Shown: positions 1 through 61,975 of the stretch, piece after piece
Layout of the letters: the number at the start of each line of letters is the position of its first letter
Numbering within the stretch: position 1 is the first letter of the stretch
Source of the DNA: a virus
Strand: one strand, 5' to 3'
Virus record (IMG/VR): IMGVR_UViG_3300025065_000001
Location: 1-64,000 of that record
DNA: 64,000 nt
The notes under the pieces: model-generated
What the model saw: only the letters and a program-made list of their open reading frames with translations
Databases searched by the model: none
Told to the model about the DNA's origin: nothing
Made by a program: the position numbers and the translations under genes

Positions 1-646
1 AAGTCGGCGCTATATCTCCTTTGCGGGGGTCGCTGATTATTGGGAGGTCACGGTACTTACCCGACATTCGCGCTTTAATAGCGCTGGGCAAGGTTACTTC
101 TGGGTCATGCTCGACAATTTCAGCCAGCGTCACTGGACGACAGTTCTTAGGGGGGCGAACTTCAAAAGGTCGGCGGGTACCAAAAATAATCAGACGATCT
201 CTTCTCTGGGGTAACCAATGCTGAGATTGGACCGGACAAAAAACGTGAACGTAGTAATCCGGCAACTTTGTCATAGCCTCCATTACCAGAGGGAACGCTC
301 TCATTCCTGGCACATTTTCAACCACGTAAGCATCGGGCTTGCGAATGGCCAAGTGACGCAAAGCATGAAGGAATAAATCGTCACCCGTTCTTACACCGTG
401 AATATCACCTATCGTGGAATACTTGGTGCAAGGGTAGGTAAAAACCATCGCATCGCATTCTTCTTGATTTAACACGAGCTCTTCAGTCAAGTCGCACTGT
501 TGAACATGGTGGCCAATATTCTCGCGATACGTCTTAACCGCGTCGGTATCAATTTCAAAAGACTGGTTAATAGTTAATCCCGCATTTATCAGCCCAATAT
601 CCATCAGGCCAGCACCACAAAAATAACTGTTTACGTTTATTTGCAT
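1..646 (-). CDS. DNA (cytosine-5) methyltransferase, 3' end runs off the window (absent from ORF track)
   Basis: Manual translation from ATG at 646: MQINVNSYFCGAGLMDIG (motif I FxGxG) ... FTYPCTKYS (catalytic PC, motif IV) ... VVENVPG (motif VI) ... PQRRDRLIIFG (motif VIII). Confidence 0.9.
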   Translation of the reverse strand, partial: MQINVNSYFCGAGLMDIGLINAGLTINQSFEIDTDAVKTYRENIGHHVQQCDLTEELVLNQEECDAMVFTYPCTKYSTIGDIHGVRTGDDLFLHALRHLAIRKPDAYVVENVPGMRAFPLVMEAMTKLPDYYVHVFCPVQSQHWLPQRRDRLIIFGTRRPFEVRPPKNCRPVTLAEIVEHDPEVTLPSAIKARMSGKYRDLPIISDPRKGDIAPT

Positions 647-672
647 CGTCAATTTCCAAATTTAAAAGTTAA

Positions 673-1599
673 TTACTCTTGTCTAAATAAATCAGAACCC
701 GACTTAACCGATCCCTTATGGCTGGCACTGTGCTCAAGACTTGGGGCCGGTTCAATCGGATCAAGTGACATTACCTCGGCCAGCGTATCGCTATTTTCTC
801 GAAGCCAATCCAAAAGAACCTCGCGTTTTCGAGCATCCGTTTGGGCTTTTGTCACACTCGGCGCCATTAAGATAGGTAAATCATCTACGTTAAGCTTTTC
901 TAATACGCTATTCGCTCTCGCTATACTCATAACGTGTCCCAGTGAGTTAGCAATAGCGCTACTACCGTCTTCTTCTAAAGAGCCGACCTTGAATTGCGGG
1001 GTAACACGGTATTCACCATCAGGAAGTAACCAACTGAACTCATCCCAAATTTCGAGGAACTGCTTATCTAGCAGAGCTACACGCTCATCGGTAGTTAACG
1101 CTCTGGCAGGTTGAGGCCCCGCTTCCTGAGGGTATTGCTTTGGTTCAGGACGACGTTTGTGAAAACTAATACCCTTACCGTTAATCACAAATATCTCACT
1201 ACGGACCATTGAAAGAATATCTGAATAAGGTTCGGCAAAATCATATCCGCTAAAGGCTACAGGTATCGCGTCCTTGTGTGCTTGGTGTGCATGGTAAACA
1301 TAGTAGCCCAGCTCAACATCCGCCTCGTTGGTGAATGCCGTAATGATTGCATTCGCGGTCTTAGGACAGGTGAGGGGGATTTTCGTAGAGAAACTATTTT
1401 GTGTTATTTCTTCCACGGCAATCAGTGTTTCGTAATTTTTAGTTGAAGCCGGTGTCTTCTTTTCGACTAACTTAAGGTGAACTTGCCTTTCCTCGTAATC
1501 CGTTAAGTTACTCATGGCGTCACCAAGTTTATCTTTATTCCATACAATCATTTGGGCCTGTACTACGGCACCGTTACCTAATTTCAAACCTTTTTTCAT
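673..1599 (-). CDS. hypothetical phage protein
   Basis: Long ORF; ATG directly after GGAAATTGACG box. Confidence 0.75.
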   Translation of the reverse strand: MKKGLKLGNGAVVQAQMIVWNKDKLGDAMSNLTDYEERQVHLKLVEKKTPASTKNYETLIAVEEITQNSFSTKIPLTCPKTANAIITAFTNEADVELGYYVYHAHQAHKDAIPVAFSGYDFAEPYSDILSMVRSEIFVINGKGISFHKRRPEPKQYPQEAGPQPARALTTDERVALLDKQFLEIWDEFSWLLPDGEYRVTPQFKVGSLEEDGSSAIANSLGHVMSIARANSVLEKLNVDDLPILMAPSVTKAQTDARKREVLLDWLRENSDTLAEVMSLDPIEPAPSLEHSASHKGSVKSGSDLFRQE

Positions 1600-1643
1600 C
1601 GTCAATTTCCTAAGTTAATTTCAAAGGGGGAGAACATTCCCCC

Positions 1644-1832
1644 CTAAATCACGCTAATTATTACTGGTTCACGGTTAAAACATTCCGAGCAGATATTCTT
1701 GCTCGAACCCATCAACTCAAGTTCCATTTCTATCGCACGGCGTCTCGAGTCACTTATCTTTGACTGGCAATTTGAACAATGCGAGTCAGCCTTTGCCGGA
1801 ACAAGGCCCTTTAATCCGTGTAAACTACTCAC
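1644..1832 (-). CDS. small CxxC...CxxC (DksA/TraR-like zinc finger) protein
   Basis: CSNC...ISDSRRRA...CSEC pattern; overlaps upstream gene. Confidence 0.5.
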   Translation of the reverse strand: MSSLHGLKGLVPAKADSHCSNCQSKISDSRRRAIEMELELMGSSKNICSECFNREPVIISVI

Positions 1833-2022: not shown

Positions 2023-2049
2023 GTGATATTTTTCTCCTTATCGTCAATT

Positions 2050-2310
2050 TTAATCGTTAGGTTCTAGGTCTAAATACAACTGCCAGCGAAAACCGGCTGC
2101 AGTTTCGAAAAACAATAACTGGCCTGTTTGGTCGCAGTATTCTTTTCTAAGCGTTTCCTCAAAGGAATCACACTTAATAAAAGTCTTGTCGAACTCCGTA
2201 ATAGCTTCAACGCGGCCATGAAATATCTTCGGTGGCCAGAAACTAAATTCCTCCGAACTTGGCTTACGACACACAATCATGTGGACGTTTTTATTCTTCT
2301 TCTTTGGCAT
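2050..2310 (-). CDS. hypothetical protein
   Basis: Start re-called at MPKKKNK, coupled to upstream gene. Confidence 0.55.
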   Translation of the reverse strand: MPKKKNKNVHMIVCRKPSSEEFSFWPPKIFHGRVEAITEFDKTFIKCDSFEETLRKEYCDQTGQLLFFETAAGFRWQLYLDLEPND

Positions 2311-2710
2311 CTTCAAAGTCCTCCAAACGTTCGTTCCAGTCTTCTTGATACAGTGAGAAGAAAATAGCCTGTAGTGCGGTATCATCCGATAAGCACGCGG
2401 CTTTACCCGCACCACCACAATCGGCATCGAGCGCTCGACTTAATTCATCGGCACAATTGATAGTGAGAACCGCAACTTGAAATTCGGCCTCGGGATCATC
2501 AGGGTCCACCCAAGTTAGATTTTCCATGATGTAGTCGTGAATGGTGTATTTACCTTCAACGAACTCCATCCAGCCCCATTCTTCATCCGCTATGATGTAA
2601 TGAATAGGCATACCCGAACTGACTCTTTCGGGGATGTTGTAGAACGCTATATCCTTATCCGACAAAATCTCTTCGGAGGTGTAACGGTGTGGGTGTGGTT
2701 GGTTACTCAT
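2291..2710 (-). CDS. acidic hypothetical protein
   Basis: ATG at 2710 follows GAGGAAATTGACG box. Confidence 0.7.
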   Translation of the reverse strand: MSNQPHPHRYTSEEILSDKDIAFYNIPERVSSGMPIHYIIADEEWGWMEFVEGKYTIHDYIMENLTWVDPDDPEAEFQVAVLTINCADELSRALDADCGGAGKAACLSDDTALQAIFFSLYQEDWNERLEDFEDAKEEE

Positions 2711-2924
2711 CGTCAATTTCCTCTCCAATTTTTCCCGCTTCTAGTAACTTGCGGTACTGCACTACGTTCTCAGGGTTATAGTCCATCAAACCAAAGGACT
2801 TCTCCCCCGTTTCTAAACAAAGGGCAGAGCCATAAACATTTAGGTTTATCGACTCAAGGTAAGTGATAACTTCAATAAGCGTCTTGTTTCTGGGACGCTT
2901 TATCTTCGGCGTGTCTTCACTCAT
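2703..2924 (-). CDS. hypothetical protein
   Basis: ATGA overlap with upstream gene, GGAGG SD. Confidence 0.6.
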   Translation of the reverse strand: MSEDTPKIKRPRNKTLIEVITYLESINLNVYGSALCLETGEKSFGLMDYNPENVVQYRKLLEAGKIGEEIDDE

Positions 2925-3409
2925 ACGTCTACGGCCTCCGCCCAGGCTTTTTCGAACACCATAGAAGGGCAAGTATCATTACACCCTTGGTCATAGCGCC
3001 GAATAATCGCGTCTTCCTGAAAAATACAGTCTACAATTTCATACTGAAGATGCCTTGTTATATCGTGTATCAAAACACTCGGAACCATCTCACCATAAAA
3101 TTCACGTCTACACTCTACAGCCCGTATAATCTGACCCGAAGGACCATAATGCCGACCCGTGTTCCACTCCATACGGCGCATTTTTCTAGACTCATCCTTA
3201 GTCACTTCTTCAGGGTAACAAGACCACGACGTTTCACTCAGGCCAAAGCCTTGTTGTCGGTCAATTTCAGAAACCGGTAGGTCCGCCGCAACATGGTTAC
3301 CATACGCTTCAGCAACGTCATAATCGCTAGCCATCACATTAGGTAAAACAAGCTGTCGGCCCGTATCGCTCTCTTCGAGCACTATTTTGAATTCTTTTAA
3401 GTCGCTCAT
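2921..3409 (-). CDS. hypothetical protein
   Basis: Box-preceded ATG. Confidence 0.7.
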   Translation of the reverse strand: MSDLKEFKIVLEESDTGRQLVLPNVMASDYDVAEAYGNHVAADLPVSEIDRQQGFGLSETSWSCYPEEVTKDESRKMRRMEWNTGRHYGPSGQIIRAVECRREFYGEMVPSVLIHDITRHLQYEIVDCIFQEDAIIRRYDQGCNDTCPSMVFEKAWAEAVDV

Positions 3410-3444
3410 CGTCAATTTCCTTCTAGTTAATTACCGGACGTTTT

Positions 3445-3702
3445 TTAAAGATACTTTTGTAAAACCAGAGCGTCTTCGGGTGTTAATACTTGGCAACTAA
3501 TCACCGAATAATAAAATTCCCAGTTCATATCTGAAATTCCCCCCTCCACCCACTCAGCGGTACCATCTTCTAAACTACCGTGACACTCACCGAGAAGCGC
3601 CAAAGCACAGGCTTCATTCTCTGATTCAGCGTGTCGTAAAGTAGTCGCACTTTTTTCGTACTCACCCGACCTAATTTTTAATTTCACCGCATAAAATTTC
3701 AT
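3445..3702 (-). CDS. hypothetical protein
   Basis: Box-preceded ATG (MKFYAVKLK). Confidence 0.65.
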   Translation of the reverse strand: MKFYAVKLKIRSGEYEKSATTLRHAESENEACALALLGECHGSLEDGTAEWVEGGISDMNWEFYYSVISCQVLTPEDALVLQKYL

Positions 3703-3850
3703 CGTCAATTTCCTTAAAGTTACAATAAACTGGCCCTTCATCAGGGGCCATAAAGTCAATTTCTGGGTAGGTAGCAAACTCGCAGTGCTCAACCGTTTTG
3801 TACCCCTCACCTAGCATGGTGCCACCACACTTTTTGCACACTTGGCGCAT
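3671..3850 (-). CDS. small Cys-containing hypothetical protein
   Basis: GGAGGTTGACGATG start (MRQVCKKCGG). Confidence 0.6.
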   Translation of the reverse strand: MRQVCKKCGGTMLGEGYKTVEHCEFATYPEIDFMAPDEGPVYCNFKEIDDEILCGEIKN

Positions 3851-3887
3851 CGTCAACCTCCAAAAGAGGGGGGGAATGTTCCCACCC

Positions 3888-4861: not shown

Positions 4862-4929
4862 AGTCGTCAATTTCCAATTTTTAAAAGTTAATTACCAAAT
4901 CAAGGGGGGAACATTCTCCCCTTCACACC

Positions 4930-5722: not shown

Positions 5723-5834
5723 AATCGTCAAAATCCAAATTTTAAAAGTTAATTCTAGGGGGGGGGAACATTCCCACCCTTCAAATTGCGGTTTTTACCC
5801 CGTTTTGGGTTTTTACATCCAAAGTGCGGGTCAA

Positions 5835-6221
5835 CTATGCCGATTCTCGCGCCGCAGCGCCACCACGAGAAGACTTCTCGGTGAATTCGTCCTTACCTAG
5901 CACCTTCTCCATTGCACCCGCTGAGGATGCGATAGAGGCCGCGCATTCAACACCGCAGTTAAAGCCAAAATCGACCAGTTTTTCAACCACTGAAAAGTCC
6001 AGTTCGAGTTCGCGAGACAATGCTTGAGTACGACGGTACACTTCGCCAAGGTCGTCAGTACCCTTGAGTGCATCCGATTTTCGGTAGAGGCCAATGAGAC
6101 ATTCGATTTGCTTGGCTTTCATCTGCATGACGTATTCAGCAATCTCTCGCTGAGTTTGGCGCATGAGTTCGTGAGGGGAGGGAGCAGTCTGGTTCACAGG
6201 CTGGGGAATGGAATTAGTCAT
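5835..6221 (-). CDS. hypothetical protein
   Basis: GGAAATTGACGATATG start. Confidence 0.7.
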   Translation of the reverse strand: MTNSIPQPVNQTAPSPHELMRQTQREIAEYVMQMKAKQIECLIGLYRKSDALKGTDDLGEVYRRTQALSRELELDFSVVEKLVDFGFNCGVECAASIASSAGAMEKVLGKDEFTEKSSRGGAAARESA

Positions 6222-6810
6222 ATCGTCAATTTCCTAAGTTAATTAATCGGCTCACGCCGTAACACCCCGTAGGGCGGATTTCAGTTATACAAGGGCAAAA
6301 TACCCGAGTCAATTGCAATGGTCTAATTTCGACCAAAAACACAATTTGGGTGTGATTCACTCCCACGGTGGTTTGTTGCACGTTGCGACAGTGAGCACCA
6401 CAAGCGAATTCAAATTCCAAGACGCGCAAAGGTTACAGCTCGTCACGCAAAGGTCGTTGGGTAGATCACTGCGACTTGCAGCAAGTCACAAGGAGTAACG
6501 AGGACATTGTGTGTAAATAAACCTCAGGTACGAATTAAATCGAAAGCGAAGTTTTTAAAAGTATACTTCTTAAAAAATGTTCCCAGTAAAATATATAAAT
6601 GTACATTTAATAACGAAAGTTTGTGGGAACATTTTTGTCACCGGCTCTGTAGGCCTTATTCTACACGGCATTGCGAGTAATAATTACCCTCACCGAAGTT
6701 ACGCGTAACTGGTCAAAATTCGCACAGCTACAGGCCGCATTCTACCGTTTTGAGAAATCGCAAAAATGGCTGAGAAAGTTTATGGGAACACAAAACCTAA
6801 GTTATTGTAT

Positions 6811-7119
6811 CTAGGCACTTAAGTTGGGCTTGTGTGTGACTTTTGAGGGTTCTACACCAGTTTCGCCAAAAAGTTTATGGGAACAGGTGTTAACTGGCTC
6901 TGGAATGTCCGTTTGCGCCAGTCTAATTGCTGTGCTCATTTCGCAAATCAACAACATTTGGTGATGCTTTGCTACGTGTTCTGGGTCTAAATTGCCCAGC
7001 TCCATGACTCTCACACCCTTCAATTCTAGCGTGCCAATCTCGTATTGTAGCTTGCCATATTGGAGGACAACCACTGGCTTAGGCCAGCCAAAACCTATCG
7101 AAACGTTCTTAAATTTCAT
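6811..7119 (-). CDS. hypothetical protein
   Basis: Box-preceded ATG. Confidence 0.6.
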   Translation of the reverse strand: MKFKNVSIGFGWPKPVVVLQYGKLQYEIGTLELKGVRVMELGNLDPEHVAKHHQMLLICEMSTAIRLAQTDIPEPVNTCSHKLFGETGVEPSKVTHKPNLSA

Positions 7120-7394
7120 CGTCAATTTCCTGTAAAAATGTGCTCAAAAGAGGGGGAGAATGTTCCCCCCTGAAGCCCTTAAATTAGGCTCGGTTTTGAG
7201 GTTAAGGCGAATACCTGTAGCCTTAAAATACTTTACACGACCCTTGTAGAGGTCCTATATTCTCATGCGAGAAGCTTGGATAGAGGCTTGAGGGTTGGAA
7301 TCGGCGCTGCTCCTATTTCCGCGCTGTCAACCCTCGATTCGAATTTTTTGTCCTTTTTTCTCGAACCAAAAACCACCAGCCTCGATTCTAGATT

Positions 7395-7634
7395 CTATTT
7401 TTTAGAATGAAAGCGCACTTCCACCAGCCGAAAATTACTTCTTCTGTCTAGAGTCTCTGCTTTGAGGGTCGCTACGGAGATCAAAAACAACGGCACACTG
7501 GCGTAACTTGATACCTCAATTAAGCCCAGGCCATCGGCACTCGTAATGAGTACCGTGAACCCAGCCACCAGCAACATAAAATGCACCATAAACGCAATAA
7601 ATAAAGCTATATCTGTACGTGTAATCATCATCAA
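7395..7634 (-). CDS. small membrane protein
   Basis: Hydrophobic segments; GGAAATTGATGATG variant box. Confidence 0.55.
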   Translation of the reverse strand: MMMITRTDIALFIAFMVHFMLLVAGFTVLITSADGLGLIEVSSYASVPLFLISVATLKAETLDRRSNFRLVEVRFHSKK

Positions 7635-7948
7635 TTTCCTAAAACGTGTGGGGGATACTTCCCGTTGGGGTTGAGGTTAGTATCATGGTAAATTTCCATA
7701 AACCTACGAACTTCTTCACACTCAGCAACACCTTCTTTATCGAGGTTATAAATCACAACTGTTCCTAGAACCTCAGCTATATCACTACCATAACGATTGG
7801 TATTTCTAATTAGACGACGCCAGAGAGAGATAATCTGGCGGGTAGTCCCTACAATGGTGGTTGTCTCTTGTTTAGTGCGTGCTTCATAGTCATTAATACG
7901 TATCTTCAACCAAGCCGCGTTTTTCTGCTTTGTCGTATCTATTTTCAT
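7631..7948 (-). CDS. hypothetical protein
   Basis: 105-aa ORF with AAGGA SD. Confidence 0.6.
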   Translation of the reverse strand: MKIDTTKQKNAAWLKIRINDYEARTKQETTTIVGTTRQIISLWRRLIRNTNRYGSDIAEVLGTVVIYNLDKEGVAECEEVRRFMEIYHDTNLNPNGKYPPHVLGN

Positions 7949-8945: not shown

Positions 8946-9262
8946 AATCGTCAATCCTTAAAAGTTAATTTGTTGGTGGGGGAATGTTCCCCCCTCGAAG
9001 TAAGTAATGCGCTACTTGCCTCGAGTTGCATTCACTATATAAGGGGGGGTGGATTTTATGCAAGAAAACGGGGTGATATAGTGGGGTGGCCCTCTCACTC
9101 CACCTGAAAAATTTTTGGAATTTTGGAAGGTTATAGATACTACCCTCGACCCTAAACCCGAGACCCAAGACCCAAGAACCTCAACCCCTTCACCCAAGAA
9201 ACTAGAAACTTTACCCAAGAACCTAGACCCAAAAGTAAACCTTAGGAACAAAAAGCGAGTAG

Positions 9263-9460
9263 TAAAAGAAAACCCCGAGGGTTGGGCCACTCGGGGTTTG
9301 AGACGTTCAACGTAATCAGAGGTCGTTGTTCGTAGGATAAGCTTGAAACTAGGTAGGCGGACGAGCACTAAAATTAGAACAGGCTTTATCGTCAATTTCC
9401 AAATTGTAGGGAGCGCTTGGGCTCCTGCGGTTGAAGCATTTAAGTTGTTTGCTGTCAACG
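9263..9460 (-). ncRNA. candidate non-coding RNA carrying a perfect target box (possible sRNA sponge)
   Basis: Promoter-like TTGACC..TATACT (9495-9469, short 15-bp spacer); box ATTTGGAAATTGACGATAA with no ATG; terminator hairpin 9270-9299 followed by a U-tract. Confidence 0.45.
9264..9299 (-). terminator. intrinsic terminator
   Basis: AAACCCCGAG...CTCGGGGTTT stem followed by TCTTTT on minus strand. Confidence 0.7.
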
Positions 9461-12232: not shown

Positions 12233-12721
12233 TTACTCCTGATTAAGTACGAGTTTCATTTCGTCGATAAACTCAGTTTTTTGCTGCGGTGTTAGATAGC
12301 GCTCCATGCTATCGAGGATAAACGTTTTGAATACACCAAATTGTTTTATACCTGAGGCCCGTTCTTGAACATCGAGGATTTTTTCCATCAGTGACACCAT
12401 GGTACGAAACGTACTGGTCATTTCGCTTGTGTCTCCGTGGTTGAGCGAGTTCTTGAAGGTTTTCATATCTCGATACAGTTGCAACGCTTCCGTCTCGAAA
12501 TCTGGAATAGAATCTAAATCCTCTAGTTCTGAGTCTGCAACGGTTATGCCAGCGTCGGTTTGAATGCTAAAAAGCGCAGTAAGGAATTCTATCTCGTTGG
12601 GCTCGTAAGGGCAGTCTTCATCGTCGAGGTAGGTTGGGTCATCTTGAATTAGTTTTTTCCACGTATTCAGCGTTGTGAAAAGGTTCGGGGTGAATTCAGG
12701 ATAGAACTTGGGTGTTTTCAT
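12233..12721 (-). CDS. hypothetical protein, possible terminase small subunit
   Basis: Adjacent and divergent to terL; size fits; position only. Confidence 0.4.
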   Translation of the reverse strand: MKTPKFYPEFTPNLFTTLNTWKKLIQDDPTYLDDEDCPYEPNEIEFLTALFSIQTDAGITVADSELEDLDSIPDFETEALQLYRDMKTFKNSLNHGDTSEMTSTFRTMVSLMEKILDVQERASGIKQFGVFKTFILDSMERYLTPQQKTEFIDEMKLVLNQE

Positions 12722-12833
12722 CGTCAATCTCCGCTTTATTATAGGTTAAATATCATACCGCAAGATTGCCTGTATAGTCAGTAAAGCGTAATCTATTCGG
12801 AAAATAGACTAATTGACGATAATTGAGGTAGCT

Positions 12834-14615: not shown

Positions 14616-14633
14616 CAATTTGGGAAATTGACG

Positions 14634-16094: not shown

Positions 16095-16169
16095 GGTTAA
16101 TTTTTAATCGGGCTTGGCAACGCGATTGAAAAGCCCTAAGATAATCGAAAATTTGGATGGAAATTGACG

Positions 16170-17740: not shown

Positions 17741-17782
17741 TTCGGAAGATTCAAACCGCAAATAAAAATTTGGAGATTGACG

Positions 17783-22327: not shown

Positions 22328-22382
22328 GTTTCATCCTCCTTCAGCAAGGTATCAATAATAACCTAAAATTTGGAGATTGACG

Positions 22383-23263: not shown

Positions 23264-23276
23264 AAGGAAATTGACG

Positions 23277-23935: not shown

Positions 23936-23954
23936 CAATTAGGGGAAATTGACG

Positions 23955-29662: not shown

Positions 29663-29699
29663 TTAATAAAATATTTATTAATTAATTTAAACAATATTA

Positions 29700-29728: not shown

Positions 29729-29734
29729 TGACCT

Positions 29735-43932: not shown

Positions 43933-44031
43933 TTACAATGGCCAAGGATGGCCATTGTTCATTTACAGTCTTGCTTAAGGGTAGTATGCTTGATTGAAAA
44001 TTAGGCTAATTGACGATACTTAGGCGGCAAG

Positions 44032-45446: not shown

Positions 45447-45465
45447 CGATAATTGGAGCTACAAC

Positions 45466-45889: not shown

Positions 45890-46093
45890 TCGTGTCGTAC
45901 TCGTGTCATTTCGTGTCCCTTTCGTGTCACCTTTCGGTACTGGTAAAAGAGGTAAGTTGTTGATTTGTACCCTCTTTGTACCTTCTTGTTTGGTGGAGCT
46001 GGCGGGATTTGAACCCGCGTCGATTATTTCCTAAATAGCTGATAAGCTTGGTTTTTTATTCGTGCCATTGGTATCTCGTGCCGCACTCGTGTC
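45890..46093. mobile_element. attP: core equal to tmRNA (ssrA) 3' end, flanked by TCGTG(T/C)C arm-type repeats
   Basis: 45991-46021 reverse complement GACGCGGGTTCAAATCCCGCCAGCTCCACCA; TCGTGYC at 45890, 45901, 45911, 45922 and 46060, 46076, 46087; adjacent to integrase. Confidence 0.85.
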
Positions 46094-47269: not shown

Positions 47270-47481
47270 TGTTCTACCGCTTCTAAGTCAATCCAAAGTT
47301 CGCGAATATGGGGTGGCTTAATAGCATGTACGCCTTTTACCCAGTGTCCGCGTTTAATTCTCTGTCGTACCGTTTCTATGTCTTCACCAGACAGTTCACA
47401 ATATTTAGTGAGTGGTACGGTTCTTAGGCTAGTAGTCACATTAATAGCAACAGGGTAGTTATCATTAGCTGAGTTCGTCAT
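47233..47481 (-). CDS. xis: excisionase
   Basis: Small wHTH-like (VPLTKYCELSGE...WIDLEAVEQW) overlapping int start. Confidence 0.8.
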   Translation of the reverse strand: MTNSANDNYPVAINVTTSLRTVPLTKYCELSGEDIETVRQRIKRGHWVKGVHAIKPPHIRELWIDLEAVEQWIRNGGNSLAG

Positions 47482-47506
47482 ATCGTCAATTTCCAAATTT
47501 TAAAAG

Positions 47507-49979: not shown

Positions 49980-51004
49980 TATTCCGCCTCCGCGCTTAGG
50001 TCCATAAACTGGCCCCAAAGTTGATTCGTAGTTTCAGTTGAAACGTCGTGTTCCGCCATTGTCGATTTGAAGATGCCTTCTAAGTCGAAGCTATCGAGGT
50101 TAACTTCCAGTTCGTCGTCTTTATTTTCCGACACGCGTTTGAAAGTCAGGCTCAAACAATCCACTTCGGCAATCGGGGCCTCCGTTGGTAGAAGCGTGAT
50201 TCGAAGGTTCATGTTTTTGAACTTATCAGGGTCAGCTTCTAAGGCCGTGGTTGCTTCTTGAAGAGAGAGCGTTATGTAGAGCTGGTTATTTGGGTCCTCG
50301 GCATGCGAGTAGGGTTGCATAGAGCCGGTAACCCAGACTGGCGTATCACCTTCCATAAAAATACGGGGTGTATGATAGTGGCCAGTGATAACCGCAAGTG
50401 CGGTTTGCATTTCTTCAAACGGGATCAAGTTATCTGTCGCTGAGCTATCTTCACTAAAAGCAAGAATGTCCCAATGGCCAAAGGCGAAGAACCCTACCGG
50501 TGGCTTAATCTCGGCAGCAATTTCTTTCGCAGTTTTAAAGGGGTGCCACGGGTAGAAAACAAAATGCTCTTTCTCAATGGTTAGGTAAAGGGCCTTTTCT
50601 GCAACTACGTGAATATTTGGCACATGAGCCACAAGCTGTGTAAATACATCAAACGAGCTCTTGAACTGGGTGTCCCTCGAGGCATCATGGTTGCCGCGAA
50701 TTATCACGAACTGACGGTCACGGTAAGTGCTGGCCGCGAGACGATAAACGTCGGCCGCAAATAAAATATCTTCTTCAGGAACGCGAAACTTATCAAACAA
50801 GTCTCCCATACAAACGTGAAGCTTATACCCTGGCGCATTTACAATGCCGGCAAAGGTATCTTTCACCATTTCTTCGCGCTCACCTTTGCGGTGTGTAGGC
50901 ACGCCAGTATTGAATTTACGTGCTAGGTGAGGGTCACCTAACGTCTGAACAAAAGAGGGGAGTTTAATTAAATCGTTTAGCGATTCGATTGGTAACATTT
51001 GCAT
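49979..51004 (-). CDS. SbcD/Mre11-like metallophosphoesterase nuclease
   Basis: GDPHL, MGDLFD, RGNHD, GHYH. Confidence 0.9.
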   Translation of the reverse strand: MQMLPIESLNDLIKLPSFVQTLGDPHLARKFNTGVPTHRKGEREEMVKDTFAGIVNAPGYKLHVCMGDLFDKFRVPEEDILFAADVYRLAASTYRDRQFVIIRGNHDASRDTQFKSSFDVFTQLVAHVPNIHVVAEKALYLTIEKEHFVFYPWHPFKTAKEIAAEIKPPVGFFAFGHWDILAFSEDSSATDNLIPFEEMQTALAVITGHYHTPRIFMEGDTPVWVTGSMQPYSHAEDPNNQLYITLSLQEATTALEADPDKFKNMNLRITLLPTEAPIAEVDCLSLTFKRVSENKDDELEVNLDSFDLEGIFKSTMAEHDVSTETTNQLWGQFMDLSAEAE

Positions 51005-51014
51005 CGTCAATTTC

Positions 51015-51389
51015 CTAAATAATAATTGAGGGGACTTGGCCCTCAGTAAAGTTAACTCTAATTTTCCAGTTTAAATCTGGGCTAAAATACGGCCAGTATT
51101 CGAGTACAAATCTTTTAATATCTGGATAGACACTAACAGCGTGTCCCAGCACAGCAAAGCATAAAACTCGGTAAGCCGCATTAGGGTTCCTAAGTTCATT
51201 GAAGTCCTCAAACTCTTCGGATTCTTCATCTGGTTCCCAAGGTTGAACAATTCGGGGTAAAAAGTTCTGGTCTGTTATATGTCCTCTTCGCCACAACAAA
51301 ACCAGCTTTGCCAGCCTAGCATTCCTCCAAATTAAAGTATTAATTTCAGTTTCAGCGTGTAAGGCCCATCCACAAGTAACCTCAAGCAT
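51015..51389 (-). CDS. hypothetical protein
   Basis: ORF in replication operon, GGAG SD. Confidence 0.55.
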   Translation of the reverse strand: MLEVTCGWALHAETEINTLIWRNARLAKLVLLWRRGHITDQNFLPRIVQPWEPDEESEEFEDFNELRNPNAAYRVLCFAVLGHAVSVYPDIKRFVLEYWPYFSPDLNWKIRVNFTEGQVPSIII

Positions 51390-51393: not shown

Positions 51394-51801
51394 TTATCTC
51401 CACGTAAATTGAAACTGCGTGAGTTCTTCAAAACGCATAGACTTCTTAGGCCAGCTTAGAATTAGGGATGCTGGTACTTTAAACCAGCCATCAATACTTA
51501 TGAAATGGAGGTAGAAATAGTAGAGGCCCCCAGCTTTGGTTACCTTGGTTGCTTCGCGCCATTGACGTTTCTCAATTCGAGAGAAATCAAAGCGTGAACT
51601 TTCAGCAATACTTTTTACTTCCGCGTAGGCCGTTAAACCTTTTTCGGTAACAAGATAGTCTGAGGGTTTTGATGAAACGATACGTTTGCGAACGCGAGAC
51701 TTGTTTACATCAGCATGGTCTTCGAAGCGATATACATGAGCGCCCAGCGCTTTCATATTCTCTTCGAAGATATCTTCGGAGGGTTTACCAGTGTTTTGCA
51801 T
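51394..51801 (-). CDS. RecU-like Holliday junction resolvase (PD-D/ExK)
   Basis: GKPSE...PSDYL...YAEVKS...RIEKRQ. Confidence 0.75.
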   Translation of the reverse strand: MQNTGKPSEDIFEENMKALGAHVYRFEDHADVNKSRVRKRIVSSKPSDYLVTEKGLTAYAEVKSIAESSRFDFSRIEKRQWREATKVTKAGGLYYFYLHFISIDGWFKVPASLILSWPKKSMRFEELTQFQFTWR

Positions 51802-51826
51802 CGTCAATTTCCTAATTGTATAAAAC

Positions 51827-52333
51827 TTATTTTGTTTTATTTAGAGTTAATACTCTTTTAGGTTTATCACCTTTATCATCTGATGTTGACTGGCGTGTGC
51901 CGCGTCCCACTTTCTGATTTATGATAATCCCTTGCTTCTTGTTCTTACGTCGAGAGCGTAAGTACATAGAATGTAGTTCAACCATTCTCTTACGAGCATG
52001 GTCTGCTTCGGATTCGGTTACTCTACCGTCAGGCTTTCCCCAGAGGTTAAAGCGCTGGGCACCAGTACGAATACGATTGAGGTATTTTATAGAATTAACG
52101 TGAAAGCCTATCGCATCGTATAGTTCTCTTGAGCTGACTTTCTTAGGAGAAATAACCGCACGAAGTTGCTCATAAATATCCCTACTTAACGGTTTGTTAG
52201 TTAAGATTCGGAATTTATTTTTACGACAATAGGTGACCACCCAAAGCCAGCAATGGATAGGTTTTTCAAATTGTAATTTTTTAGAATTATATTTAAGGCT
52301 TACACCTTCAATTCCAAAAGTGGCGTTATCCAT
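51827..52333 (-). CDS. ProQ/FinO-domain RNA chaperone
   Basis: KPLSRDIYEQL...LYDAIGFHVNSIKYL....GAQRFNLWGKPDGRVTESEADHA matches the FinO-domain pattern (PLxxGI, YL, GxxRxDLxG..G.V). Confidence 0.8.
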   Translation of the reverse strand: MDNATFGIEGVSLKYNSKKLQFEKPIHCWLWVVTYCRKNKFRILTNKPLSRDIYEQLRAVISPKKVSSRELYDAIGFHVNSIKYLNRIRTGAQRFNLWGKPDGRVTESEADHARKRMVELHSMYLRSRRKNKKQGIIINQKVGRGTRQSTSDDKGDKPKRVLTLNKTK

Positions 52334-52356
52334 GCTCAACTCGTCAATTCATATTT

Positions 52357-55400: not shown

Positions 55401-55931
55401 AATTACTTTATTGGTTTCTTTGTCAAACAATGACGTTGAAGTACTGTAAGTTCTGATATAGTCCGTGTTGTTTAGTTCTAATTCTGGAACCGCACTATTC
55501 AGATGAGTTAGGAAATCTTCAGGATTGGTGATTTTTAGCTTAGCGTGCTCGTCTTTATCATAATCGAATAGGATTAGACTTGGACCTTTTGTGATCATAG
55601 ATTTCGAAGAACGTGTGCCATACACACCGGTTTCATCTACGTGCACTGGGTATTCATAGCCACGGCGCTCAAACTCGTTACTGGTTAGGACCTCTACAAA
55701 CTCGTGGTCCGTATCCATAACGCCAGGGGTAAAACACTGGTTAGGCTCTAAGCTTTTTATAAAATCGGGTAACTGTGAGAGTGTTAGCTGCACTCGTTTT
55801 GCTGTACCTGTCACCATCTTAGGTGCATCACTTACAATTTTACCATGCTCCATTCGTAGCTCTTTGGTGAGCACTCCGGTGGAGTTCGTAAAAAGTGTCA
55901 GGTAAAACGGTTGTTCTACTTGGTTAGCCAT
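52428..55931 (-). CDS. primase-polymerase (AEP-like) fused to SF2-type origin-binding helicase
   Basis: LFDYDKD and GFHIY AEP-like motifs; SEKGTGKT Walker A; IMDE Walker B; QHMSRVR motif VI. Confidence 0.7.
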   Translation of the reverse strand: MANQVEQPFYLTLFTNSTGVLTKELRMEHGKIVSDAPKMVTGTAKRVQLTLSQLPDFIKSLEPNQCFTPGVMDTDHEFVEVLTSNEFERRGYEYPVHVDETGVYGTRSSKSMITKGPSLILFDYDKDEHAKLKITNPEDFLTHLNSAVPELELNNTDYIRTYSTSTSLFDKETNKVIRPADGFHIYMLVDKGEDIARFGKMLEKRCWMAGLGHIKVSASGGRLPRTIFDTSVFQPERLCFEAGAFIKLKESFYQKLPKGEINRRGKRSLKTTLLKDYTPTQDKEFRRVVELEKQSEDVINRVSEFREIKVQRMVNTTHYTQMPLSRDEAMKIVKAHENKILHPADILEFEDGRITSVLEAFLNPTLYDGAQLQDPLRPEKGYSKAKFYANAGRYGDYNPTIHSFVEGERNFELRESIETFMSKTEATESRLEEFDNKAMVIDQRYLPELRLRPGITLVKSEKGTGKTYMLKQQVQDFDGRVIAISQLISLVNSLSKQFNLADYNEIESERLHSLRMQKRLGICLNSIYKLQGQNYDIVIMDEVCQLVRAIKATTVDKPAACLKVLREIIAGAKFVICMDADLNKEFVDLMRDPQFGILPEDRTINVIVNKYRPAKEQQRQVTLYQDTDGKGDTSAFVEALMCEAKTTGLFYASNSKVDVLKKAATIIEEMGGDSQLEHEHFMTEINGRRVITITSNNSQTPEVQAFIRDLNGNLRDDDIFMSSPSMGTGHSIDATAAGARFKKTFAFFTKMAGNLPSDCLQHMSRVRECTDYHVMYLDNARRYPTAPLEIVQKEIYGNRNTIDNKLCVQFISEYDYATERLKINDHGWSDWYGQLKSFENNKLNHFSKNLINALENEGYNINTLYTLASDEGYNLKMLMDELTDQIREVEKQKLRDTELLTDEEFEILDNQTLKNAEEQRQLLKKRQARLFGLEAGDELNDVVTMSTQALNGRRKGLMLGANNDDLFLIDMINRFDTKRHDKDKTAFADHQGLGRGFFYHLGVIFLNDIPTYDGREITDLEKDRAFDFLLAHARDLEILQGIRMPLCDTDKKRHEFVRRVLTSFGMKYRREKKRVGVRSVYKYYLDDERFNRWVEDVRRAKELSHSTMFTGLEEVPGNLKAYVFQALAGSPQVSELHPYISKLHPEIQNRLINLLNNKLFVVTTNVA

Positions 55932-55981
55932 CGTCAATTCAATCCAAATTGTAGCGGCCCTCTAAGTGAGGGCCGACTTCA

Positions 55982-56590
55982 TCAAAGTTTACTTAGGTCT
56001 GCAGGGGTGTAATCAACAGACTTAAGCACTTTGCCAGCAGCATAGCTTTTACCATCTTTATCGGTACTCTCTTTTTTGACCTTAACGGCCCAGAGCGCGG
56101 TACCTTCATTTTTATTTTTATTGGTAAGTTTTACAGGTTTTGCTTCAACACTAACACCCAAGGTGGTGTAGTGGTCGAGTGTCGCTTGCACGTTATCATC
56201 GTTACATAGCTTACTCATATTCGAGTGATGGACAATATCCCAAGCTTTTAGGATATCGAAGTTTATTTCTTCGGAAGCCGATAGAAGTGTTTCTATGATG
56301 TTTAGTTCCCAAGCAGGCATGTGATTTAGGGTATGGTAGGACTGAACATACTTACCAAACAACACATATAGACTATCTACAATAGCATCTATTTTATCTA
56401 CTCGGGTTTCTGCGCTGAAAAGCTCACGCATTTCCTCGCGGTAGAGGTCGAAGTGTAAGTTTAAAGATTCCGTGGTGAATCCAACATCAATAGGTAAGTC
56501 AAAAGCGGTTCTAAAATCTACAATATTCGCAAAGAACTTCTCGAAAATTTCAGCCGTTAAAAAGTTATATTTAATACCATGAAGTAGCAT
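55982..56590 (-). CDS. MazG-like/PRA-PH nucleotide pyrophosphohydrolase
   Basis: EEMREL..DAIVDSLYV..VHHSNMSK..GKVLKS. Confidence 0.8.
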   Translation of the reverse strand: MLLHGIKYNFLTAEIFEKFFANIVDFRTAFDLPIDVGFTTESLNLHFDLYREEMRELFSAETRVDKIDAIVDSLYVLFGKYVQSYHTLNHMPAWELNIIETLLSASEEINFDILKAWDIVHHSNMSKLCNDDNVQATLDHYTTLGVSVEAKPVKLTNKNKNEGTALWAVKVKKESTDKDGKSYAAGKVLKSVDYTPADLSKL

Positions 56591-56679
56591 CGTCAATTTC
56601 CTTTAATTTTTAAGTATGAGACCAGCATTATAAAAAGTAATCAAGTGAGTTGCTGGCAAACTAACTGGATTTTTATTAA

Positions 56680-60626: not shown

Positions 60627-61052
60627 TTACTGCCACTCTTGGTCTTCTTCTTCAGAAGACCTCACAGGTATAGCCGATTCATCAAACAACTTGCCTAACT
60701 CGGCCATAACGCGCTGTATGCCGCCTTCATTATGTTTTGCTGCAAAGTATGCGTCTTTAAGTGCAATAACTTGTTTGGGATTAAGATACCCTAGCTCGGC
60801 AAGAGCTATCTGCACCCCTTGGTCATGTAATTTAACGATTCGTCTTGATATCTCTTGGAATACTGAGTAGTTCTCTGAGGATATACTCGACTGCTCAATA
60901 ATATCTTTATTGAATTGGGTTTTTACCCTAACGGTATTTTCATAGTCTTTAGGTTCTACAACCAGAGGCCTACCAACTTCCGGCATTGGTGTACCTGAAC
61001 TTGCTTCTGGTAAAACTTCATCAACTTTTTGCATTGGTGGAACAAATGGCAT
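60627..61052 (-). CDS. hypothetical protein
   Basis: AAGGAGATTGACGATG start. Confidence 0.65.
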   Translation of the reverse strand: MPFVPPMQKVDEVLPEASSGTPMPEVGRPLVVEPKDYENTVRVKTQFNKDIIEQSSISSENYSVFQEISRRIVKLHDQGVQIALAELGYLNPKQVIALKDAYFAAKHNEGGIQRVMAELGKLFDESAIPVRSSEEEDQEWQ

Positions 61053-61063
61053 CGTCAATCTCC

Positions 61064-61951
61064 TTACTCTTCGTTATTCAAATTAAACGCCGCTTTAAGG
61101 TCCAGCGCTAACGATAGAAGTGCACTGGCTCCGAGATAGATTTCTGAATCGAGACGCGCTTCCTGTTGGTCCTTAGGAATATCGTCGCTTTCTTCAATCA
61201 AGCGGTCTGAATACTTGATACGCTTAACAGAACCATCTTCACAGAGCATAGCGGTCAATTGGTCGTCATAACTGACAGCAAGTTTCTGAACGAGCTTGCC
61301 TGAGTCTAAACACAGTTGAATTTCTTCTGAGTCGAGTTCTTGATTTTTTGCACGGATAACCGCTTTGGTCTCATCTGTGGCTTGAAGCTCAGTCTCTTCG
61401 AGCAATTCAAATTTGTCAGGGTGGCCATTAACAATCCAGCTTGTTAGGTCTGAAGCGAGAGACCGTCTTGCGAATGGAACTACGGGTAAACTACCTAGCG
61501 CTTTACGAAGTACCGCAAGGAAGATTTCGGCCTCACCATCTGAAGAGGCATTCACTAACACTAGTTTATGCTCTGGGATGATTGTGCCAATAGTTGAGGT
61601 TTGGTCTGTGAACGCACGCGGCGTTAGGTGCGTAACTATTTCTTCTTTTAAGTCTTGACGCTGTTTTTTCCCAACCGGTGATCCCGTTTCCGCTTCAACA
61701 AGCTTAACTTTTTCTTCTAACTCACGGTTGATAACTCGCGCAGGGAGTATCTTGCTTTCTTTCAAAAGCTTAACCGTGTAAATACCTTGAACCTCATGAG
61801 CCAGTAAAGAACCAATGATAGGTGCAAAACCTAGAGAGGCTAGGGTATGTGAACCGCAAGGGTGGAAGGGGATTGCCTCTAGCGCTGGCACTAGGTTAGA
61901 CAAGTCTACATTTTGAGTGAGTGAATAAATCTTTGCGTTTTTAAAATACAT
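61064..61951 (-). CDS. rdgC: recombination-associated protein RdgC
   Basis: MYFKNAKIY..KILPARVI..LTPRAF..LRKALGSLPVVP..GKLVQKLA. Confidence 0.9.
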   Translation of the reverse strand: MYFKNAKIYSLTQNVDLSNLVPALEAIPFHPCGSHTLASLGFAPIIGSLLAHEVQGIYTVKLLKESKILPARVINRELEEKVKLVEAETGSPVGKKQRQDLKEEIVTHLTPRAFTDQTSTIGTIIPEHKLVLVNASSDGEAEIFLAVLRKALGSLPVVPFARRSLASDLTSWIVNGHPDKFELLEETELQATDETKAVIRAKNQELDSEEIQLCLDSGKLVQKLAVSYDDQLTAMLCEDGSVKRIKYSDRLIEESDDIPKDQQEARLDSEIYLGASALLSLALDLKAAFNLNNEE

Positions 61952-61975
61952 CGTCAATTTCCTGTTTTTAGTTAG

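Follow-up and report, generated by a model that had tools for sequence, protein, structure and literature searches.

Among the systems closest to the one described here, RocC/RocR of Legionella pneumophila combines a FinO-domain chaperone with a trans-acting, multitarget small RNA (sRNA), whereas FinO/FinP of F-like plasmids and FopA/Inc combine an element-encoded chaperone with an antisense RNA that occludes a ribosome-binding site (RBS) and keeps the element quiet (PMC9977716). Cluster K mycobacteriophages carry start-associated sequences (SAS) with the consensus GGGATAGGAGCCC, confined to the nonstructural arm (PMC3203893), and the function of the SAS is still open in PMC12699233. P1 and P7 encode c4, a small antisense immunity RNA (PMC12197685), and the stoperators of the cluster A mycobacteriophages, the sites of the L5 repressor gp71, are cited in PMC3203893. 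The phage analyzed here, a marine temperate phage with a genome of 80.5 kb, carries a short box at 42 of its approximately 93 gene starts, together with a predicted sRNA gene and a ProQ/FinO-domain gene.

Like RocC/RocR, the phage has a FinO-domain protein and one dedicated sRNA built from a stem-loop, a linker, and a terminator, which would pair in trans at the RBS regions of several mRNAs sharing a box; RocR represses translation, and the same is predicted here. RocR acts on four host competence mRNAs, however, whereas the phage genome offers about 42 near-identical sites fused to start codons; the phage system is virus encoded, and the two RNAs have no sequence similarity. No Rfam family matched positions 29500 to 30000 better than E = 0.28, and the C4 model, RocR, and FinP were all unmatched. 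Judged from its sequence, the phage sRNA appears to work as the RocC-RocR class does without being a member of a known RNA family. With FinO/FinP and FopA/Inc, it shares a FinO-domain chaperone gene carried on a mobile element and an antisense RNA aimed at the RBS, but FinP and Inc are encoded in cis and have a single target, whereas the phage sRNA is encoded in trans, with dozens of predicted targets. The CI RNA of P4 is, like c4, a phage-encoded immunity RNA. Both are small antisense RNAs that act in trans on short repeated targets in phage transcripts, where they set immunity specificity; they differ in having about two targets in one operon and in being processed from longer transcripts, and use of a FinO-domain partner is not known for either.

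The box resembles the SAS in being an asymmetric 13-mer that contains a Shine-Dalgarno (SD) sequence, lies a few bases before many starts in a single orientation, and is rare in the bacterial genomes searched. It differs from GGGATAGGAGCCC in sequence and from the SAS in phage lineage and host phylum, and it also occurs on structural genes; no cognate RNA has been described for the SAS, whereas a reversed copy of the phage box lies inside a clear sRNA gene. On these features, the box is an analogue of the cluster K SAS and not a member. Stoperators are DNA sites bound by a phage repressor protein and act on transcription. They share with the box the presence of dozens of asymmetric, co-oriented 13- to 14-bp sites across a temperate phage, and they give genome-wide silencing by one factor; they differ in that a protein acts on DNA, at transcription, whereas the evidence for the phage box points to RNA-RNA pairing at translation starts.

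The box, 13 to 14 bases long and in a fixed register relative to the ATG, takes in the SD sequence GGA, the opening bases of the AUG, and an invariant spacer between them; only its GGA(G) matches the general anti-SD sequence. In the window, by which we mean the whole 64,000-nucleotide stretch analyzed, GGA(A/G)ATTGACGAT(G), or GGARATTGACGATG, occurs 25 times with at most one mismatch (0.08 expected), and TTGACGATG occurs 22 times (0.48 expected from shuffled sequences), which confirms an earlier note's claim of a genome-wide motif. The exact 14-mer is present 15 times in this window, whereas none of 401 sampled Pseudomonadota genomes has more than two copies (34 copies altogether). All 33 sites that the earlier note had listed are real, each placed there by the start-codon end of its box. 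The sites in the window are as follows.

644 to 657, minus strand: box directly at ATG
1597 to 1610, minus strand: box directly at ATG
2040 to 2052, minus strand: set-back box AAAATTGACGATAAGGAG, ATG at 2022
2708 to 2721, minus strand: box directly at ATG
3407 to 3420, minus strand: box directly at ATG
3700 to 3713, minus strand: box directly at ATG
3848 to 3861, minus strand: box variant GGAGGTTGACGATG, two changes, both G-U compatible
4862 to 4875, minus strand: box, then CTATG, start 4861
5724 to 5736, minus strand: box variant GGATTTTGACGAT, then TATG, start 5722
6221 to 6234, minus strand: box, then TATG, start 6221
7117 to 7130, minus strand: box directly at ATG
7626 to 7639, minus strand: box variant GGAAATTGATGATG, C>T, G-U compatible
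8946 to 8959, minus strand: box variant AAGGATTGACGAT, then TATG, start 8945
9387 to 9400, minus strand: orphan box, ORF-less, with 19 nt of complementarity to the sRNA, flanked by two minus-strand terminators
12719 to 12732, minus strand: box GGAGATTGACGATG at ATG
12808 to 12822, plus strand: set-back box ahead of the large terminase gene, followed by a second SD and GTG 12834
14623 to 14636, plus strand: box of the portal gene, at ATG
16159 to 16172, plus strand: box directly at ATG
17772 to 17785, plus strand: box of the major head protein gene, at ATG
22372 to 22385, plus strand: box directly at ATG
23266 to 23279, plus strand: box directly at ATG
23944 to 23957, plus strand: box of the tape-measure gene, at ATG
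29872 to 29885, plus strand: box of the tail gene downstream of the sRNA, at ATG
31943 to 31957, plus strand: set-back box, GTG 31968
44005 to 44019, plus strand: set-back box, ATG 44032
45438 to 45452, plus strand: set-back box GATTGACGATAATTGGAGC, sRNA match extended over the SD, ATG 45466
47481 to 47494, minus strand: box, then TATG, of a small gene upstream of the integrase
51002 to 51015, minus strand: box directly at ATG
51799 to 51812, minus strand: box directly at ATG
52341 to 52352, minus strand: degenerate box GAATTGACGAG in the leader of the ProQ-like gene
55929 to 55942, minus strand: box variant TTGAATTGACGATG of a primase/helicase-like gene
56588 to 56601, minus strand: box directly at ATG
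61050 to 61063, minus strand: box GGAGATTGACGATG at ATG
61949 to 61962, minus strand: box of an RdgC-like gene, at ATG

Twelve further boxes follow in the 16.5 kb past the window end. A copy at 35407 (plus strand) lies within a long tail gene, without the GGAAA context, and was rejected as a box.

Every boxed site that precedes a gene is in sense orientation to it, as had been claimed; the sole exception to this orientation, at 29762 to 29775 (minus strand), is the antisense of the sRNA gene. The proposal that the box mostly marks the first gene of translationally coupled blocks also proved sound: a box is present at 38 of the 59 genes whose upstream gap exceeds 12 nt but at 3 of the 34 coupled ones (Fisher p = 9e-8). 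The earlier note had further traced the many MTM N termini to the box; a TTG does sit in the box, but MTM as a protein start is an artifact of ORF listing, and the real start is the ATG, since the TTG lies merely 2 nt after GGAAA. Both early and structural genes carry boxes, as does the gene for an XRE-like candidate repressor, in which the core falls just within the first codons. Box status is gene specific and conserved, with only 0 to 2 unboxed genes per genome having boxed orthologs. At about seven set-back sites, with the sequence TTGACGATAAT, a second SD and start codon lie 12 to 17 nt downstream of the core AATTGACGAT; the GGA is kept only where a start codon directly adjoins and is gone from these sites. 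The conserved zone is precisely the 13 to 15 nt opposite the sRNA linker, whereas the flanks and the sequence past the ATG are not conserved. A-rich tracts upstream of the boxes resemble UP elements.

That the box is a promoter element, either a −35-like TTGACG or a phage-specific promoter giving leaderless mRNAs, is barely credible. TTGACG/TTGACA does equal the sigma-70 −35 consensus, and the A-rich tracts and the TTGACGATAAT of the set-back sites would suit a promoter, but no conserved −10 element is found 16 to 18 bp downstream, where the sequence past the ATG is unconserved, and transcription would begin inside the gene. Neither the tie between GGA and an adjacent start codon nor the equal boxing of early and late genes would be expected of a promoter, and the proteins scanned included neither a phage RNA polymerase nor a sigma factor.

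Two tail genes flank the gap that holds the reversed copy, which belongs to a predicted transcription unit with these parts.

29700 to 29728, plus strand: sRNA promoter, TTGACA, 17 bp, TAATAT, 10 of 12 matches, sigma-70-like
29735 to 29813, plus strand: predicted sRNA of about 79 nt, with 5′ stem-loop, single-stranded linker, terminator hairpin, and U tail
29763 to 29775, plus strand: anti-box ATCGTCAATTTCC, the seed, in the unpaired linker, P(unpaired) 0.95
29781 to 29813, plus strand: intrinsic terminator, then U tail, with G-U pairs that make it functional on the plus strand only

The promoter holds the sole perfect TTGACA −35 element with a 17-bp spacer in the genome and is kept in relatives; the 5′ end of the sRNA was placed from its −10 element, and transcription from this promoter of its own is what the sequence suggests. 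The RNA evidence consists of unstranded metatranscriptome contigs, which run from the 3′ half of the sRNA into the downstream tail gene. The RNA is predicted to end in an intrinsic terminator and a single-stranded U tail, the element that FinO domains bind, and 5 of the 11 terminator pairs show compensatory changes across lineages. The anti-box is predicted to be unpaired in 6 of 7 genomes (P 0.87 to 0.95). Across these sRNAs, 10-mers at the anti-box have 8 to 34 genomic complements, against 0 to 2 elsewhere along the RNA; in the sRNA of this phage, the profile has a single peak, at the anti-box, with 34 complements. The sRNA would thus present an accessible seed complementary to the RBS regions of several unlinked mRNAs.

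Seven genomes carry the sRNA (this phage, G004, G008, G005, G001, G007, and KB12-38), and in all seven the gene occupies the identical location, the gap beyond the first gene downstream of the tape-measure gene. A covariance model, scanned against all of these except G004, gave a single significant sRNA hit for every one of these six box-bearing genomes (E = 3e-17 to 5e-8; 97 bits and E = 3e-17 for this phage), and G004 also carries the promoter/sRNA/terminator unit. The same scan gave no significant hit in JWF, in three further high-GC relatives, or in a Mesorhizobium prophage, and JWF-like relatives are without sRNA, box, and ProQ/FinO-domain gene alike. Four box alleles were found, each matched by the anti-box of its own genome: GGAAATTGACGAT with ATCGTCAATTTCC in this phage, G004, G008, and G001; GGAAATCGACGAT with ATCGTCGATTTCC in G005; GGATTGACGATAT with ATATCGTCAATCC in G007; and GGATTGACAAT with ATTGTCAATCC in KB12-38. 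When every sRNA was set against every genome, the sites with at least 11 nt of complementarity were most numerous on or beside the diagonal; the one tie concerns the remaining U boxes of G005, with 19 sites for the sRNA of our phage's type and 18 for G005's own.

These lineage-specific spacers, each mirrored by its own sRNA, argue against a plain extended SD, and they also bear on the quite improbable reading of the box as an optimized initiation cassette, with a strong SD, a favored spacer, and possibly an enhancer, spread by recombination and gene conversion, in which the role of the 29.7-kb RNA would be confined to that of a cis-acting leader or attenuator of the tail gene that follows it. 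T4-type phages carry mobile promoter/stem-loop cassettes, and the arrangement on early genes, in which a repeated hairpin is followed by AATTAACTT and then the box, recalls them; the box holds a functional, correctly spaced SD, the tail gene that follows the sRNA also has a box, and the RNA contigs bridge the two. The spacer is nevertheless invariant where ribosomes need no such thing, the core is retained at set-back sites without use of its SD, and between the anti-box and the downstream gene stands a strong, conserved terminator. The flanks are unconserved, so the boxes are not pieces of longer duplicated cassettes. In G001, the gene adjacent downstream of the sRNA has the mismatched box GGAAACTGACGATG, whereas the sRNA fits the genome-wide consensus, which argues against a purely cis-acting leader.

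Variation within the boxes follows the rules of RNA pairing. Interior variants comprise 63 wobble-compatible transitions and 8 pair-breaking ones (p = 1.6e-9, counted over variants that are not phylogenetically independent events), a G·U bias that fits RNA pairing and not a DNA-binding protein. Opposite an A in the sRNA, the box base is U in 128 cases and C in none; opposite a G, in G005, it is U in 18 cases and C in 10. Since the most frequent wobble variant, A4>G, also yields a better SD (GGAG), ribosomal selection could account for part of the bias. Predicted pairing energies with the sRNA were −21.7 ± 2.6 kcal/mol for boxed translation-initiation regions (n = 34) and −20.3 kcal/mol for set-back boxes (n = 7), compared with −9.9 kcal/mol for unboxed starts, which equals the value for shuffled sRNA (−9.7).

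It is against this variation that a DNA-level operator, an asymmetric site at which a DNA-binding protein of the phage would halt elongating transcription in the prophage as at the L5 stoperators, has to be weighed. The 29.7-kb copy would then be merely another site in reverse orientation, and its covariation with the boxes would be trivial, since it would be just another copy of the motif. Many asymmetric 13- to 14-mers in short intergenic spaces, co-oriented with transcription in a temperate phage, would suit an operator, and the core TTGACG/TTGACA resembles a −35 hexamer. The operators of L5 likewise resemble a −35 hexamer. We regard an operator as very improbable because of the 63-to-8 wobble bias, a U/C asymmetry that depends on whether the sRNA has A or G, conservation of GGA only with an adjacent start codon, and the fixed register to the ATG; moreover, the reversed copy is unique in every genome and is embedded in a conserved promoter/stem-loop/linker/terminator unit whose terminator covaries and works on the plus strand only. 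The variation pattern and the start-codon dependence argue for recognition of the box at the RNA level, as far as sequence comparison can indicate.

The element that encodes the sRNA also encodes a candidate partner for it.

51827 to 52339, minus strand: ProQ/FinO-domain protein gene (PF04352, E = 7.5e-13, 48.9 bits, cutoff 27)

The protein also matches the N-terminal domain of ProQ (PDB 5nb9, E = 1.7e-6); a homolog is present in all seven sRNA-bearing genomes and, among 50,697 phage records, in KB12-38 only. The gene is located in a lytic-type operon. An RNA-binding protein encoded by the phage, together with a motif situated in mRNA at the RBS, could also suggest that the box is the site of a protein or endoribonuclease (a translational repressor like RegA of T4, a nuclease that cuts in the SD as RegB does, or host RNase E cutting at AA/AUU), with the sRNA an antagonist or unrelated. 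RNase E has a loose preference that accommodates GGAAAUU. Such a site is highly improbable, however: it predicts neither wobble-compatible variation nor the A/G-dependent U/C asymmetry, and the elements that FinO domains recognize are terminator hairpins and 3′ tails rather than linear motifs (PMC9977716). There is no need for the alternative offered in the earlier note, a phage RNA-binding protein acting alone; the ProQ/FinO-domain protein probably assists the sRNA and is best regarded as its candidate chaperone.

We consider it likely that a single antisense sRNA, encoded by the phage and acting in trans, has the box as its shared target in the translation-initiation regions of nearly all independently translated genes. 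The suggestion that a single trans-acting factor, most simply the 29.7-kb sRNA, recognizes the box has gained support from the promoter/terminator unit, the unpaired anti-box present in one copy per genome, the four co-changing alleles, and box variation of the RNA-pairing type. The sRNA would be made from its near-consensus sigma-70 promoter and would display the 13-nt anti-box in the linker between its 5′ stem-loop and terminator; a pairing stretch of 13 to 19 nt, with a predicted energy of about −21 kcal/mol, would mask both the SD and the AUG and thereby keep the 30S subunit from binding. Occlusion of these elements, leading to genome-wide translational repression, is the most likely mechanism, and repression rather than activation is suggested by where the pairing falls. 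Since boxed genes head translationally coupled blocks, one RNA would restrain most of the phage proteome and is probably able to silence translation across nearly all of the phage genome. The probable contact sites of the ProQ/FinO-domain protein are the terminator and 3′ tail, where it would stabilize the sRNA and speed pairing, a role modeled on those of RocC for RocR and FinO for FinP. No published description of such a phage box/sRNA system was found in the literature.

As to biological role, two of the relatives are labeled as proviruses in IMG/VR and an integrase is encoded by this phage, so there is a lysogenic state. One plausible but far from secure role is to silence, in the lysogen, phage mRNAs that arise from leaky expression or superinfection, with immunity specific to the allele; a threshold or timing device during lytic growth appears rather unlikely, and something else accounts for the remainder. 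The 40-odd abundant mRNAs of lytic growth could titrate a single sRNA, and its effect may therefore be limited to low transcript levels. The lytic-type operon of the ProQ-like gene fits the lysogen role less well, unless host ProQ substitutes, and the boxed XRE-like candidate repressor gene is awkward for a simple model in which the prophage silences all lytic genes. The orphan box at 9387 to 9400, which has an ORF-less counterpart at the syntenic place in G005, is a candidate decoy RNA.

Tentatively, these strands can be joined in a reading that we hold to be possible though doubtful, in which the sRNA is an RNA "master repressor" conferring immunity at the level of translation. A constitutive prophage sRNA would then silence all of its own translational units as well as incoming phages with the same box allele. 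The alleles (U7 or C7, GGAAAUU or GGAUU, CGA or CAA) would constitute immunity groups that diversify via G·U intermediates, and the RNA of the 9.4-kb orphan box would act as an antirepressor sponge that releases the lytic program. By the same reasoning, a single reverse-oriented copy in an unnoticed antisense RNA would explain the start-associated sequences of the cluster K mycobacteriophages.

The motif that the earlier note had described at gene starts stands out clearly from expectation: TTGACGATG occurs 22 times in the window (0.48 expected), the 14-mer box with at most one mismatch 25 times (0.08 expected), and the 10-nt core AATTGACGAT, with the same tolerance, 50 times in the whole genome versus four times for a reversed control. 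Among 401 sampled Pseudomonadota genomes, taken as a general null, the exact 14-mer was found at most twice per genome. The claimed sense orientation at gene starts holds for 34 of the 36 exact cores; the other two are an orphan at 9387-9400 and a copy at 29762-29775 that is antisense to the flanking tail genes. A rough gene model of the whole genome puts boxes at 42 of 93 gene starts; they do head translationally coupled blocks, being present at 38 of the 59 genes with an upstream gap of more than 12 nt versus 3 of the 34 coupled genes (p = 9e-8), with several "unboxed with gap" genes representing artefacts of start calls. The MTM N-termini stem from the TTG of the box, as had been suggested, but only when ORFs are listed from that TTG; the true start is the ATG. 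An exact TTGACGATG at 35407-35415 (plus strand), within a 1520-codon tail gene and lacking the GGAAA context, probably arose by chance or has no function.

The usual box reads GGA(A/G)ATTGACGATG with ATG as the start codon, preceded at some boxes by 1-3 additional bases. About seven set-back sites have no GGA; there, TAAT-like bases and a second Shine-Dalgarno (SD) sequence come after the core, and the start codon lies 12-17 nt downstream. The GGA is thus kept only where it is used as an SD, whereas the core AATTGACGAT has a separate function. Conservation is confined to the 13-15 nt of the box, and since the flanks are not conserved, the boxes are not fragments of longer duplicated cassettes. 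Two promoter readings were rejected: a sigma-70 -35 element, as no -10 element is present at 16-18 bp downstream and conservation does not continue past the ATG, and a leaderless-mRNA promoter, as GGA conservation is limited to ATG-adjacent sites.

The phage record is a single contig of 80,544 bp (the window is its first 64 kb) with a G+C content of 44.6%. The structural genes lie on the plus strand (12.8-45.8 kb) and all remaining genes on the minus strand. PHROGs matches comprise a portal, a major head protein, a tape-measure protein, a DNA polymerase, primase/helicase proteins, an SbcC-like protein, and the following:

12813-14615: large terminase
46031-47269: tyrosine integrase

By major head protein, the nearest named phage is Pseudoalteromonas phage KB12-38 (58% identity), followed by Achromobacter JWF and 2-1, Xylophilus Lumi, and Caulobacter Seuss. 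No megablast match to 20 kb of the phage was found among GenBank phages, and relatives were found instead via protein search and pattern scans. An exact-pattern scan of viral contigs returned mainly single chance matches, together with four multi-match contigs that led to relatives; 18 viral contigs were recovered using the protein encoded directly upstream of the putative 29.7-kb sRNA gene as probe. Near-identical DNA is present in marine, seawater, and vent metagenomes of many studies, and two relatives are labelled proviruses in IMG/VR. Kinship with KB12-38 and the G+C content suggest a marine gammaproteobacterium as host. The flank of one provirus (G008), searched for its host, gave nothing finer than Pseudomonadota because it is itself another mobile island: it carries, adjoining the prophage (L187:5439-8695), a DRT3a/DRT3b antiviral reverse-transcriptase pair, and also a second integrase, a helicase, and serine and tyrosine recombinases, and is a defence island sharing the prophage's integration hotspot. 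Inside the structural operon is a lone minus-strand ORF without a box (21986-22327), for which there was no Pfam match; an Arc-like DNA-binding protein is annotated at the equivalent position in JWF.

The reversed copy of the box lies in a 214-bp gap separating two tail genes, for which a promoter/terminator scan predicted the following elements around a putative sRNA of 79 nt:

29700-29728, plus strand: predicted promoter, TTGACA-17-TAATAT
29735-29813, plus strand: predicted sRNA
29781-29805, plus strand: predicted terminator, followed by a T run

This promoter is the sole instance in the genome of a perfect -35 element with a 17-bp spacer. In the predicted fold of the RNA, an 18-nt single-stranded linker joins a 5' stem-loop to the terminator and holds ATCGTCAATTTCC, the exact complement of the box (anti-box), with a probability of being unpaired of 0.95. 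Rfam gave no significant match here, placing the system outside all curated RNA families at this locus, and no conserved ORF was found on either strand: minus-strand readings are 3-10 codons long and unconserved, and a plus-strand GTG frame of 61 codons is disrupted in relatives by non-triplet indels. The one source of RNA evidence is metatranscriptome contigs, which cover 29750-30046 in four runs and are the deepest phage pieces of each run; these are unstranded, may derive from DNA, and cannot rank expression, the parts that they leave uncovered carry no meaning, and they are no proof of a transcript. A promoter-like TTCAAT-16-TATACT (29829-29856, plus strand) separates the sRNA terminator from the tail gene that follows, and its conservation in two relatives (G005 and G001) suggests that the downstream tail genes may have their own promoter.

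All low-GC marine relatives have a unit of promoter, stem-loop, linker, and terminator in the equivalent gap, G004 included, whereas in four high-GC relatives resembling JWF the gap is entirely absent. Scanning six box-bearing genomes with a covariance model gave exactly one significant sRNA copy per genome, JWF-like loci gave none, and 5 of the 11 terminator pairs show compensatory changes. The system spans at least five diverged phage lineages and marine metagenomes of many studies, and its counterpart in phage KB12-38 can be cultured together with Pseudoalteromonas sp. KB12-38; G001, in which only about 10 kb of DNA is alignable to this phage (about 68% identity), has about 35 boxes identical to those described here and the same anti-box. 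Between lineages, box and anti-box vary jointly:

Box and anti-box by genome
This phage, G004, G008, and G001: box GGAAATTGACGAT, anti-box ATCGTCAATTTCC
G005: box GGAAATCGACGAT, anti-box ATCGTCGATTTCC
G007: box GGATTGACGATAT, anti-box ATATCGTCAATCC
KB12-38: box GGATTGACAAT, anti-box ATTGTCAATCC

Along each sRNA, genomic complements number 8-34 at the anti-box and 0-2 elsewhere, and a matrix of sRNAs by genomes has its maxima on or beside the diagonal, the sole tie arising because the sRNA of the type found here matches the remaining U boxes of G005 (19 sites versus 18 for G005's own sRNA). Box status is kept gene by gene, and boxed orthologs of unboxed genes are almost absent.

Were a protein to bind the box as a DNA site, the 29.7-kb copy would be one more such site and the covariation of box and anti-box would be trivial. 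The variants within the boxes argue against this. Across five lineages, all sites with no more than two mismatches together have, at their interior positions, 63 transitions that preserve G·U pairing with the cognate sRNA versus 8 that break a pair, at roughly equal opportunity (p = 1.6e-9), with the caveats that the commonest variant, A4>G, also improves the SD and that the counts are not independent events. Where the sRNA has A at one position (four genomes), the boxes have U in 128 cases and C in none; where it has G (G005), they have U in 18 and C in 10. This asymmetry is as predicted by G·U and G-C versus A-U pairing and thus supports RNA pairing, and it shows allele change passing through a wobble intermediate. 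In every genome, moreover, the reversed copy alone is enclosed in a strand-specific transcription unit, which, together with the wobble bias and the U/C asymmetry, favours RNA pairing over a DNA site. The anti-box could also be a cis-acting anti-SD element for the adjacent downstream tail gene, which is itself boxed; however, a strong covarying terminator separates the two, and the sRNA of G001 fits the genome-wide consensus while the box next to it is mismatched. The anti-box complement, its covariation with the box, and the wobble-biased variants thus lend comparative support to the earlier proposal that the box is the target of an sRNA. In G005 (L175-L178), late plus-strand genes have mainly the C-allele box, Watson-Crick paired with its sRNA, and early genes mainly the U-allele box, paired by G·U (6:1 versus 7:17, Fisher p = 0.012); this split could reflect graded repression or a conversion in progress.

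Duplex energies predicted for the linker and windows from -35 to +15 were -21.7 +/- 2.6 kcal/mol for direct boxes (n = 34) and -20.3 kcal/mol for set-back boxes (n = 7), compared with -9.9 kcal/mol for unboxed starts, a value equalled by shuffled sRNA (-9.7). The predicted pairing extends from the SD to the first two bases of the AUG and, at set-back sites, runs 3' across the second SD. Pairing of the sRNA with the box would accordingly be expected to occlude the SD and the AUG. A candidate partner is encoded in the same genome:

51827-52339, minus strand: ProQ/FinO-domain ORF, matching Pfam ProQ/FinO above cutoff and the solved ProQ N-terminal domain

Each of the seven sRNA-bearing genomes encodes a homolog; among 50,697 phage records, KB12-38 alone has one. 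The leader of this phage's gene contains a degenerate box. FinO domains aid FinP, Inc, and RocR in translation repression and have terminator hairpins with 3' tails as their ligands (PMC9977716); the sRNA is probably loaded on the ProQ-like protein. As the boxes head coupled blocks, one RNA could repress most phage translation. The strong host-type promoter suggests that the sRNA is expressed from the prophage, where it would set a threshold that filters out leaky transcripts and those of superinfecting phages, and immunity would be allele-specific; the main alternative is a timing role in lytic growth.

GC-rich hairpins (GGGGGAA..TTCCCCC) lie 5-45 nt upstream of many early-gene boxes, and a second motif is found upstream at variable distance:

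near 1625, 3868, 4903, 5758, 7151, and 8978, minus strand: GC-rich hairpins
upstream of the boxes at 652, 1605, 4870, 5731, 6229, 8954, and 47489: AATTAACTT(TTAAAATTT)

G001 (L146/L147) has a different perfect palindrome, GGGGGCATGTGCCCCC, at the equivalent position, often without a U tract; possible roles of the hairpins are partial termination, RNase III cleavage, and 5' stabilisation. The AATTAACTT motif includes TTAACTTT, which we take to resemble the T7 gene 10 'epsilon' translational enhancer. The orphan box, in a unit at 9.27-9.47 kb, is flanked by two minus-strand terminators, and its RNA could conceivably serve as a decoy; the matching place in G005 also has a box without an ORF. Iteron-like tandem repeats of the GACCCAA type (9148-9227; periods of 7, 14, and 21 nt) adjoin the orphan box and the primase gene and are a possible replication origin. 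A plus-strand gene for an XRE-like HTH protein, with the box within its first codons, and a gene for a multi-pass membrane protein are inserted in the minus-strand region (L190:9084-10340; genome 73084-74340), and the pair converges on an ORF of 50 codons with a signal peptide.

Neither base-pairing sRNAs aided by FinO-domain chaperones nor phage immunity RNAs are new in themselves: the proposed mode of action is like that of RocC/RocR and FinO/FinP, and the P1 c4 and P4 CI immunity RNAs are likewise phage-encoded. The genome-wide layout is similar to that of the L5 stoperators and closest to that of the start-associated sequences (SAS) of cluster K mycobacteriophages, whose function, an open question since 2011, is still unexplained (PMC3203893, PMC12699233). 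In several cluster K genomes one SAS alone is reverse-oriented and lies away from gene starts; that of Mycobacterium phage Anaya (L189; 59870-59882 of the record) sits downstream of a terminator, in a non-coding gap of 385 bp, and an antisense RNA analogous to the sRNA is a possibility there, with no clear sRNA unit definable in the gap. Full-text searches and reviews of FinO/ProQ proteins (PMC9977716) and phage sRNAs (PMC12197685) yielded no description of such a system, nor any published virus in which one dedicated operator-like sequence, read by a single RNA of the virus itself, marks almost every translational unit. If confirmed, this would be an RNA equivalent of genome-wide protein stoperators and a natural case of seed/target allele coevolution over dozens of sites; it would also suggest a mechanism for SAS and provide a compact orthogonal translational switch consisting of one 80-nt RNA and a 13-nt tag.
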